DNA of 22,499 bases, counting the filler, from an uncultured archaeon (lineage in GTDB: Archaea; Iainarchaeota; Iainarchaeia; Iainarchaeales; 1-14-0-10-31-34), in NCBI GenBank assembly GCA_964442255.1. It is 6 parts of 6 records of this genome, joined end to end, with 100 filler letters (N's around TTAATTAATTAA, not from the genome) between each part and the next. Parts side by side here need not be neighbours in the genome. Positions count along the whole stretch, not along the records: positions 16,713 to 19,556 come from CAYTYC010000048.1; positions 19,657 to 22,499 come from CAYTYC010000049.1; 4 more parts are not named here. One strand, 5' to 3'. The first letter of the stretch is position 1, and the number at the start of each line of letters is the position of its first letter. Below, in pieces: positions 18,001 to 21,000 of this stretch. Made by a program: the position numbers.

Positions 18001-21000
18001 TCCTGGAAGCTTGAATAATTCCTTGTCTTTTGCGGAACATAAATCACGGTGTCAAACTGCCTTCCTTTTGCCTTGTGGACAGTGGTTAAAACAACTTTTT
18101 GCTCAATGTCGGAGTCCTGCGCCAAAAGATCCGAGGACTCAATGAAGGCCGCAAACTCATTCAAGCTCTTGTCTTCCAGCAGTTTTATTGCTTCCCTGCA
18201 GGCTTCCTGCACGCTTAAAGCCGCAAACAAGTACTCTTTTCCGTAAGCCAAAGCCACTGGAATAATTTTTTCCCTGAACAAAATGTTAATGTCCTCTGTC
18301 CCTGAAACGCTTTCCCTTACCTTTTTTAATTCAGGGCATTTTTCCAGTATTTTTTCCACCGAAGGAGAACTGGAAGACAGCTCAAACGCTTCCTTTAAGG
18401 GAACCGGAAAGAACGGGGTAAACATCGCGTTTTTCACGTACTCTACGTCTGAACTGAAGACTCCCCTTAAAAAGTCCACAATGCTTTGCTTGGCTTCCAC
18501 TGACGCAGAAAAATGCGTGGAAGAATGCTTTATTCCCTGGTTAAAGAATTCCTTGGATAACCCCATTATCTGGCGGTTGGTTCTCGCGATAACCGCAATG
18601 CTTCCTTTTTCCTTTAAAAGCATTTTAACCATTTCAGCGGCCTCTGCCTCCATGTTTTCTTTTGCCTCAATTACCGCCGGCTTTTCGCCTTTCCTGCCGT
18701 CAAAACTGCTTAAGCCCTCTAAAGCCTTGCAGTAATCCTTGTTTCCTGTCTTGCTTGAAAACAGTTTTTTCGCGTAATCCAGTATTTCGTCAGTGCTTCT
18801 CCTGTTTTCAGTTAAAACAAATTCTTCATGGTTTCCTGGTTCCCTGAATTTTTCAAAATTCAGTATTGAGCCCCCCTGAAAACCGAAAATGGCTTGTTTT
18901 GCGTCCCCCACCGCAGTAAAGGTTTTCCCTGACTTTAACGCAATGTCTGCCTCCATTTTGTTTACGTCCTGGAGTTCGTCAACCAAAACGTGCCTGAATT
19001 TTTTGGTGTTTTTGAGCTTCAAGAATTCAATCAATAAGTCCGTGTAATCCAGTCCCCTTCCCTTTTTTGCCTTTTCATAGGCTTTAAAGATTTTCACGAA
19101 TTCCTCCAGAAAAGCCTCCAGTTCTTTTTTGCCGAATTTATCGGTTTCCTCCAGTTTTTCCTTTGCTTTTCCTGTTTCAATGTCTTCCGGCAGTATTCCA
19201 AAGCTTTTCAGGTACCTTAACAGGTTTTCTGTTTTTGGCACAATGTTTTCCAGCAGGTATTCGTCCCCGTAATTCAGCACTTCATTTTCCTTGAAATACC
19301 TGTAAATCGTGTATCTCAGCAGGTTTGAGGACACAATGCTTTGTTCGTCTATCCTGTCCAGCGCGAAAGAGTGAAACGTGAATACATTTAATCTGCTTGA
19401 ATCGAGTTCAATGCCTTCTGCTTTAAGCATTCCTGTTATGCGTTCCTCCATTTCCGTGCGGGCCTTGTTTGTGTAGGTCAGGCACAGTATTTCTTCGGGC
19501 TGAACGCCTTCTTGAATCAGTTCAGCGTATTTGCAGGCCAAAAGAAAGGTTTTTCCNNNNNNNNNNNNNNNNNNNNNNNNNNNNNNNNNNNNNNNNNNNN
19601 TTAATTAATTAANNNNNNNNNNNNNNNNNNNNNNNNNNNNNNNNNNNNNNNNNNNNACAGGGTCAGGGGCTTTCAGCCCCTGTCACGCAGCGGGTGAGAT
19701 TCGAACTCACGCGTCCAGAGGACAACAGCTCTCTCACAAACTTTTCTCAAAAGGCTGCGGCATCAGCCGCCTGGCGTAAGCCCGCCTTTTTTGACCAAAC
19801 CTTTTGGAAAAAAGTTTGAATGCCTTAAGGCATTTTTGCTCAAGCTTTTTGGAAAAGTTTGTCTCGAGGCTGCCGCGTTTAACCACTCCGCCACCGCTGC
19901 ATTGTACAGAAAAATTTAGTGGAAAAAGGGTTTAAAAAAAGTGCTTTACGGCTTTATGTATTCCGCGACTTTTTCCGCGATTTTCCTGGATTCCTGCTCG
20001 CTTTTCGTGTCTTTCACGATTATTTTTCCCGAACGGAAAAAGCTCACGCTTTTTTCCTGCACATTAAGCATTAAAAGGAAAGGGGTTTCCGCTTCAACCC
20101 TTCCCCCCTTGCTTTTGATTTTAACCGCTACTTCCCCCAAAGAAAGGTTCAATTTTTTCCTGGGAATGAATTCAAAGGCTGCACTGCTTTTGCATGCTTT
20201 TCCCGTGAAATCCTTTAACTGCATTCTAACCAATTTCTTCCCGTCTACTTTTTTTAAGGCTTTCTTCAACCAGTTTTCCGGTTTCCAGCTTTTTTTCTTC
20301 TTCTTCAACCTCTTTTTCCGAGGACTTTGTGGCGGGCTTTTCCGGCACCAGACTGCAGCAGCCCGCACGCTGTATGGAGGTTTCAAACGTGCCGTAAGAG
20401 CGGGCAAGCGACTCTATTTCGGTTTTGTCCATTCCAAGCAGGGGCTTTAGAACGGGTGCACGTGTTGCATTGAATTCAGTGCGCAGGTTGCTTAAGGTTT
20501 GCGACGCCACCTGCCCAAGGGATTCTCCTGTAACCAAAAAATCCGCTCCCTCTTTTTCCCTCAATGCATCCGCTTTTTTCAGCATCATTCTCCTGCACAA
20601 AACGCAGTTCAGTTTCCTTGAACAGTTTTTGATTATTCCTTTTTGGCTTTCGCCGTTTGGAATGACAATGAATTCAATTTTTTTCCCGAATTTTTTTGCA
20701 AGCGTTTCCAGTATTTTCCGGCTTTTTTCCTCGTTTTTTCTGTCAGAGAAAGGGTAATTGTCAAGGTGCACCGCAAACACTTTAACGCCTTTTTCAAGAG
20801 CAAGCGCAGTTGAAACTGCGGAGTCAATTCCCCCTGAAAGCAGGGCAACGCATTTTAGTATGCCTTCACCCCATTTGCCCCTTGTCGTCCACCACCATTT
20901 CCAGGCTTGCGTGATGGCATTCAAGGCGCTTTATTTCTTTTTTGTAATGGGAGTAGCGTTTAACCCCGTAAACTGACAAGGCAAAGGAAAGTAAAAGGAT

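Follow-up and report, generated by a model that had tools for sequence, protein, structure and literature searches.

Two genes of a 1.28-Mb archaeal genome (G000, 93.8% complete) probably encode, together, a single tRNA 4-thiouridine(8) synthase, that is, a heterodimer that makes s4U8. The catalytic gene is on contig C49, within the window (the whole stretch of DNA analyzed, 22,499 nucleotides of joined short contigs), and its partner is on contig C13. This reading draws on domain content, motif complementarity, co-occurrence, and fold. To our knowledge, all ThiI/TtuI enzymes that have been studied are homodimers of one three-domain chain; searches of this genome with PF02568 and THUMP found no one-chain copy. 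The pair, which is real, conserved, and mechanistically coherent, is a new form within ThiI rather than a system of a new kind. A downstream Cys-TBP gene, two catalytic subtypes (with both lineages within one family), and occurrence outside the phylum go beyond what the genome-wide survey's note had recorded for this locus.

In the main texts of the freely accessible papers searched, we found no published description of a two-gene ThiI. In the accessible parts of the relevant sources, all TtuI are stated to contain NFLD, THUMP, and PP-loop (PMC9825150), an NFACT-R (DUF814) fusion is the only variant described (PMC4075521), and nothing on a ThiI split appears (PMC5372739, PMC12255305).

The window gene and its probable partner on C13

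The features discussed below are as follows (window coordinates unless marked otherwise):

20226..20861, minus strand: catalytic subunit, THUMP-less ThiI/TtuI PP-loop domain (Pfam ThiI and PDB matches; probable start from relatives and GGTGA)
20820..20837, minus strand: PP-loop SGGIDS, predicted to bind ATP
20595..20606, minus strand: CXXC (CVLC), first two predicted [4Fe-4S] ligands (alignment; motif role from PMC9825150)
20496..20528, minus strand: DI-loop GESLGQVASQT, predicted to act on the ATP phosphates
20352..20363, minus strand: GCCS, with the Cys equivalent to T. maritima Cys344 (predicted third ligand)
19946..20224, minus strand: stand-alone Cys-TBP, 92 aa, directly downstream of the catalytic gene (PRK12475 match, TBP fold match, conserved Cys)
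G000:C13:29286-30161, plus strand, outside the window: partner gene, NFLD and THUMP followed by a dead PP-loop remnant, 291 aa (Pfam, alignment)

The survey had taken the open reading frame at 20226-20924 (minus strand) for a catalytic PP-loop domain alone, with SGGxDS and cysteine motifs, and this is confirmed. The frame matches Pfam ThiI with 197 bits over profile positions 5-196 and is the sole PF02568 match in a whole-genome search; in the PDB it matches 2C5S (E 1e-34) and 4KR6 (E 1e-30). SGGIDS, the DI-loop, and the Cys344 equivalent, which mark a catalytic ThiI/TtuI domain, are all present, as are the CXXC and further Cys of the [4Fe-4S] TtuI subclass (CVLC, GCCS), for which cluster binding is predicted. 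Pfam finds the ThiI domain by itself, with no fused NFACT-R. A gene of 232 aa had also been proposed; that frame exists, but the protein probably starts at the ATA at 20861 (~211 aa) rather than at the TTG at 20924, because most relatives begin no more than a few residues from the K-x-x-x-L-x-SGG motif and because GGTGA precedes the ATA by four bases. The stop of the upstream gene overlaps this GGTGA. The start region shows no difference in contigs that come from two runs of a single study, although one of them (X1) may be the window's own source. The upstream gene, at 20866-21273 (minus strand), encodes a DUF202 membrane protein, a neighbor shared by G112 alone among the loci compared, and an MscS mechanosensitive channel gene lies at 21303-22370 (plus strand).

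The C13 protein is the sole THUMP match in the genome. As the survey described, a ferredoxin-like domain (ThiI_fer, residues 11-77) and THUMP (86-164) are followed by a degenerate PP-loop domain, in which EGKKFD aligns to SGGIDS, the CXXC helix is missing, and the third Cys is not reached before the chain ends. An hhalign comparison of this remnant with the catalytic profile gives P 74% and E 2.8e-5. The predicted structure (pLDDT 95) has PH1313 (1VBK) as its best Foldseek match (E 1.3e-26, TM 0.85), followed by T. maritima and B. anthracis ThiI. PH1313 is also the best sequence match of the dead subunit, and both proteins combine NFLD-THUMP with a C-terminally truncated PP-loop domain that has lost the same motifs. 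A pseudogene is ruled out by intact reading frames of 263-314 aa, with invariant residues, in 48 genomes. The gene that follows, at G000:C13:30478-31776 (plus strand), encodes an Mre11-like nuclease, as judged by eye from the sequence. Close relatives of both the catalytic and the C13 proteins carry the labels Candidatus Diapherotrites or Iainarchaeota.

We compared the motifs of the chains in an alignment of 48 catalytic subunits (out of 63), 48 dead ones (out of 64), and all 21 one-chain proteins. SGGxDS occurs in 48/48 catalytic, 0/48 dead, and 21/21 one-chain proteins, and the DI-loop in 48/48, 0/48, and 16/21, respectively. The column equivalent to Cys344 is Cys in all 48 catalytic subunits and deleted in the dead ones. 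Conversely, the NFLD-loop Lys and the linker Gly (equivalent to Gly168) are found in 48/48 dead subunits, which thus retain the NFLD-THUMP module of ThiI/TtuI on a separate gene, and the GLPxG linker in 47/48; a KRGC-type turn is present in 40/48 dead versus 0/48 catalytic subunits. At the position of Asp319, 32/48 catalytic versus 3/48 dead subunits have D. Cysteine motifs are less uniform than the survey implied: the window protein does have CXXC, but only 16 of the 48 aligned catalytic subunits share it, and the other 32 have the single Cys only.

Taken together, the pair has what one-chain ThiI/TtuI has (T. maritima, 4KR6/4KR7; B. anthracis, 2C5S; TIGR00342): three domains, PP-loop, DI-loop, catalytic Cys, and NFLD lysine loop. 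Unlike one-chain enzymes, it divides these functions over two genes, with one active site per pair, and the window and C13 proteins score 194.2 and 120.3 bits against TIGR00342, both below the cut-off of 264.5. The window protein also shares CXXC and C with archaeal [4Fe-4S] TtuI (M. maripaludis MMP1354, P. furiosus PF1288; PMC9825150), as do the 16 CXXC-bearing catalytic subunits of the phylum. Here, in contrast, the catalytic chain is without NFLD or THUMP and most catalytic subunits are of the single-Cys type. The published NFACT-R fusion likewise has a THUMP-less ThiI catalytic domain, but it binds RNA by a fused, unrelated domain (PMC4075521), whereas a separate dead paralog is predicted to do so here.

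The structure of T. maritima ThiI suggests how two such chains could work together. There, U8 is brought to the PPase site of one subunit by the NFLD and THUMP domains of its partner, whose NFLD Lys17 points into that active site; the DI-loop touches the NFLD loop of the opposite subunit, a bond joins the linker Gly168 to Asp319 in the opposite PPase domain, and most of the interface lies between the PPase domains (PMC4041423). Judged from sequence, the pair would share this cross-subunit geometry. Each chain keeps what it would give across an interface of this type, so we infer a heterodimer, and because the losses match the cross-subunit catalysis of the ThiI dimer, s4U8 is its likely product. 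Physical contact and stoichiometry are part of the same reading: the enzyme would be an asymmetric heteromer, in the simplest case a 1:1 heterodimer. NFLD and THUMP of the dead subunit would grip the acceptor stem and 3'-CCA, its lysine loop would reach into the partner's active site, and its shortened pseudo-PP-loop domain may serve as a docking surface. The window protein would bind ATP and adenylate U8, and its CXXC+C [4Fe-4S] site would deliver sulfur. The interface cannot be identical to that of the homodimer, because the dead remnant is without the CXXC helix and the DI-loop.

Distribution and origin of the two genes

We searched 121 genomes of the phylum with PF02568 and with the C13 protein, counting strong PF02568 matches as positive (84 genomes) and five genomes with weak matches (E > 1e-11) as negative. 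Both halves are present in 63 genomes, one chain in 21, and neither in 36; the dead half stands alone in one genome (G065, 160 contigs, 88% complete) and the catalytic half in none. Split and one-chain forms never occur together (0/121). Contig ends cut the catalytic gene of G050 and the dead gene of G022. In families f3, f4, and f9 (30 genomes) both halves are absent together and these searches found no ThiI of any form, and in f5, f19, f20, and f22 one chain stands in place of both. It should be noted that kin are not independent, and the phylum pattern corresponds to about ten gain, loss, or replacement events. An assembly artefact is ruled out, as the split is also seen in single-contig genomes such as G001.

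This co-occurrence (63/121), the exclusion of one-chain ThiI, and the complementary motif loss support the survey's proposal of a two-gene TtuI. Its placement of one-chain ThiI mostly outside the order is reversed: 17 of the 21 one-chain genomes (f5, f19, f20, f22) are within it and four outside, and one genome outside the order (G057) has the split form.

The same counts bear on the possibility that the proteins have separate jobs, with the catalytic domain acting by itself or together with some other RNA-binding protein, while the THUMP protein serves a different enzyme as an adaptor (Tan1/THUMPD1-like) or is a tRNA chaperone. There are precedents in THUMP adaptors for an acetyltransferase (PMC9957541) and in the THUMP-less ThiI domains that use NFACT-R (PMC4075521), and one genome outside the phylum (G123) has unequal numbers of the halves. 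We nevertheless consider separate jobs quite improbable: either gene is almost never found without the other in the 121 genomes, both vanish where one-chain ThiI is present, and Nat10/TmcA was not found in G000 at its 93.8% completeness.

The survey described ThiI as split. There are indeed two genes, but both carry the PP-loop domain, so the two-gene form is the product of thiI duplication with complementary loss rather than of gene fission. Relative to B. anthracis ThiI (2C5S, 413 aa), the window protein covers residues 189-390 and the C13 protein 29-217, and this overlap within the PP-loop domain rules out a clean fission. One-chain ThiIs of the order are not supported as ancestors of the pair. 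On a PP-domain tree (FastTree, midpoint root; four rows without motif dropped), they fall together with sequences of Acetothermia, Thermoplasmata, and bacterial type (0.984) and are separate from the catalytic-only clade (0.91).

CXXC-type and single-Cys-type catalytic subunits form separate clades (0.976, 0.991; FastTree), and family f1 holds both. Monophyly of its six catalytic proteins is rejected (p-AU 1.8e-5, in a test on 37 rows and a quick tree, with CXXC columns included), and its dead subunits form one clade (0.935). Therefore, catalytic subunits have been exchanged, or differentially lost, while the tRNA-binding subunit was inherited vertically. No covariation is seen between the dead PP remnant and the catalytic type of its partner (identity 0.292 for same type versus 0.304 for different).

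The two halves adjoin only in G012, G018, and G108, which belong to one genus, and are not neighbors in the other 60 of 63 split genomes; in family f7 they are often 13-19 kb apart. An Mre11-like gene follows the dead-subunit gene in those three genomes as well (L063, L064, L065).

Loose linkage and exchange could also fit a different architecture for the same pathway, in which a homodimer of the dead subunit presents tRNA as an adaptor and contacts the catalytic chain only transiently, on tRNA or in an A2B2 complex. 1VBK was solved as a dimer (PMC9957541), the genes are mostly unlinked, and one clade of dead subunits serves catalytic partners of two lineages, which suits a loose interface. 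Against this, the pseudo-PP domain is conserved between families (mean identity ~27-34%) and has invariant positions, and the two members of the Gly168/Asp319 cross-subunit pair lie on different chains, as expected of a heterodimer. We regard the homodimeric adaptor as unlikely, although it is the strongest competitor of the heterodimer.

Pairs in other archaea

To look outside the phylum, we scanned with dead-type sequences, took the best 80 of 584 matches, and searched the 13 genomes found to bear a dead subunit. Eight of these have a catalytic-only gene, and in three (G125, G127, G135; completeness not given) there is no strong PF02568 match. The remaining two, G124 and G131, were dropped as cases of a dead plus a full-length protein, given that their catalytic chains are THUMP-less and have a rhodanese-like tail (recognized by eye, with no Pfam match). 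These chains (L206 and L229) have a third architecture, in which a ferredoxin-like remnant is followed by a live PP-loop and the tail, with THUMP deleted; the dead subunit is separate. Four ThiI-like proteins of 380-425 aa with a dead PP-loop (P0041, P0042, P0044, P0050) group apart from the short dead subunits and are possibly further independent pseudo-enzymes. The 594-aa frames around the dead gene of G182 and G191 contain no further Pfam domain.

In Methanomassiliicoccales (the order of G123), PF02568 is found solely in frames of 86-287 aa in all 41 genomes, and 39 have a separate NFLD gene; the other two (G199, G205) have no NFLD or THUMP match. All 12 THUMP frames fetched, from 10 genomes, are dead. 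Extra copies occur in G123 (three catalytic, two dead) and G211 (two of each), with one pair adjacent in each genome.

A graded series is seen in Thermococcales (the order of G121). An intact catalytic-only gene is present in 39 of 41 genomes; it is broken in G152 and G172, the latter without another complete ThiI. Both of the catalytic-only proteins tested pass the PRK08349 cut-off (349 and 325 versus 251). In 31 genomes, all 31 type-A genes (380 aa) are followed by the catalytic-only gene, at a distance of 60-2234 nt. Type A retains SGGIDS and, as a rule, CXXC, but its third Cys is Ile or Val in 14/14 proteins fetched, versus Cys in 24/24 catalytic-only and 7/7 complete type-C proteins. In G122, CXXC and the DI-loop are also lost, and Pyrococcus-type genomes have the truncated PH1313 form. 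Five genomes (G138, G139, G145, G158, G165) have the dead form and the catalytic-only gene and nothing else ThiI-like; in the single-contig genome G158, the dead protein is identical to 1VBK and the sole other ThiI is a 201-aa catalytic-only protein. Read from these sequences, the series begins with a tandem duplication, after which first the third Cys and then CXXC and the DI-loop are lost, and it ends in truncation.

On the PP-domain tree, type A is the sister group of the catalytic-only clade of Thermococcales (0.969); on the N-terminal tree, it clusters with the PH1313 form (0.998). The Thermococcales pair appears, on a midpoint-rooted FastTree topology, to have arisen independently of the catalytic clade of Iainarchaeota and Methanomassiliicoccales. 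PH1313 belongs to a lineage separate from the C13 protein on both trees. The PRK08349 family (NF006222, a 198-aa "hypothetical protein") is catalytic-domain-only like the window protein, but the latter scores 190.7 bits, below the cut-off, and falls in another clade.

The PRK08349 protein is a candidate partner of PH1313. The PH1313 structure was released in 2005, and the protein is in print without a partner. It is described as ThiI-like, with activity unconfirmed, and was crystallized alone as a dimer (PMC9957541). According to a preprint, s4U8 is lost when Tk0366 is deleted (10.64898/2026.08.09.743744).

A complication is the presence of two NFLD genes in 18 of the 41 Thermococcales genomes, one of them type A or dead and the other a complete type-C TtuI. 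A pair that cooperates but thiolates another position or RNA, such as U9, would explain why it is kept beside a complete TtuI, and s4U9 does exist in some archaea (PMC9825150). However, the pair is the sole ThiI in the phylum and in Methanomassiliicoccales, where it is exclusive with one-chain ThiI, and the NFLD-THUMP ruler residues are conserved. Another target is therefore, in our estimate, the least probable of the readings, marginally behind separate jobs.

For the heterodimer, we count gene coupling in three settings (G012/G018/G108; L180, L183, and G174, where the stop and start of the two genes touch or overlap; type A of Thermococcales). Counted against it are the halves that are not neighbors in 60/63 genomes, the PH1313 dimer formed alone, and a remnant that does not track partner type.

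Sulfur supply and implications

IscS is encoded beside IscU in G000, together with a second desulfurase, and SufB was not found there. In the heterodimer model, IscS/IscU would supply sulfur and cluster. The 92-aa product of the gene directly downstream of the catalytic gene may also be involved. Its fold matches TBP (Z 9.3, rmsd 2.5, 85 aligned), and 29/30 family members match the C-terminal end of MoeB/ThiF PRK12475, with which it shares the fold and a conserved Cys (kept in 151/156 homologs). In MoeB/ThiF this TBP-like domain is part of an E1, whereas here it stands alone, and G000 has no E1 over cut-off.

Among the 63 split genomes, the Cys-TBP gene is adjacent to the catalytic gene in 24, within 4.5 kb in five, elsewhere in 25, and not found in nine; adjacency spans 10 of 18 families and both catalytic types. 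A ThiI-specific role is ruled out, given that the gene occurs in 96/121 phylum genomes, including most of the ThiI-less f3, f4, and f9. Because those families are without ThiI, Cys-TBP must serve another pathway there. No Cys-TBP-ThiI fusion is seen among the best 150 profile matches, in which the two long matches are ThiF/E1. Two Thermoplasmata loci have the order E1-TBP, catalytic-only ThiI, stand-alone Cys-TBP, and in 7/7 Thermococcales fetched, the C-terminal TBP-like domain of a longer frame (E1-TBP by resemblance) precedes type-C TtuI. E1-TBP architecture and E1-ThiI links have been noted (PMC2948915). That Cys-TBP is a sulfur carrier is a possibility that we rate at somewhat less than even.

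Directly downstream of Cys-TBP, at 19685-19901 (minus strand), is an intron-containing tRNA-Ser(CGA), which ARAGORN calls when introns are allowed. Many tRNA genes of G000 have long predicted introns (20 calls without versus 43 with the intron option, some of them doubtful). No RNA holder and no Rfam match of note turned up.

A broader scheme can be offered tentatively, and we doubt that it holds in full. In it, tRNA thiolation would be a modular, three-part system consisting of a tRNA-binding pseudo-enzyme, an exchangeable catalytic subunit (CXXC+C, single-Cys, or rhodanese-tailed), and an E1-derived Cys-TBP persulfide carrier. Among archaea, the heteromer would have arisen on two or more occasions, probably three, and would be the only s4U8 route in Methanomassiliicoccales and in PH1313-bearing Thermococcales.

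If the heterodimer reading is true, an enzyme and its pseudo-enzyme paralog would provide a clean case of a homomer becoming a heteromer, with living intermediates in Thermococcales. Both the orphan structure PH1313 and the PRK08349 family would gain a function. In many Thermococcus genomes, the 380-aa protein annotated as "ThiI" would be without its third cluster ligand and dependent on its neighbor, and a whole order of methanogens would gain a two-gene route to s4U8. For TtuI enzymes that have no rhodanese, Cys-TBP is a candidate to fill the place of the missing sulfur carrier. These predictions are open to test in cultured archaea.
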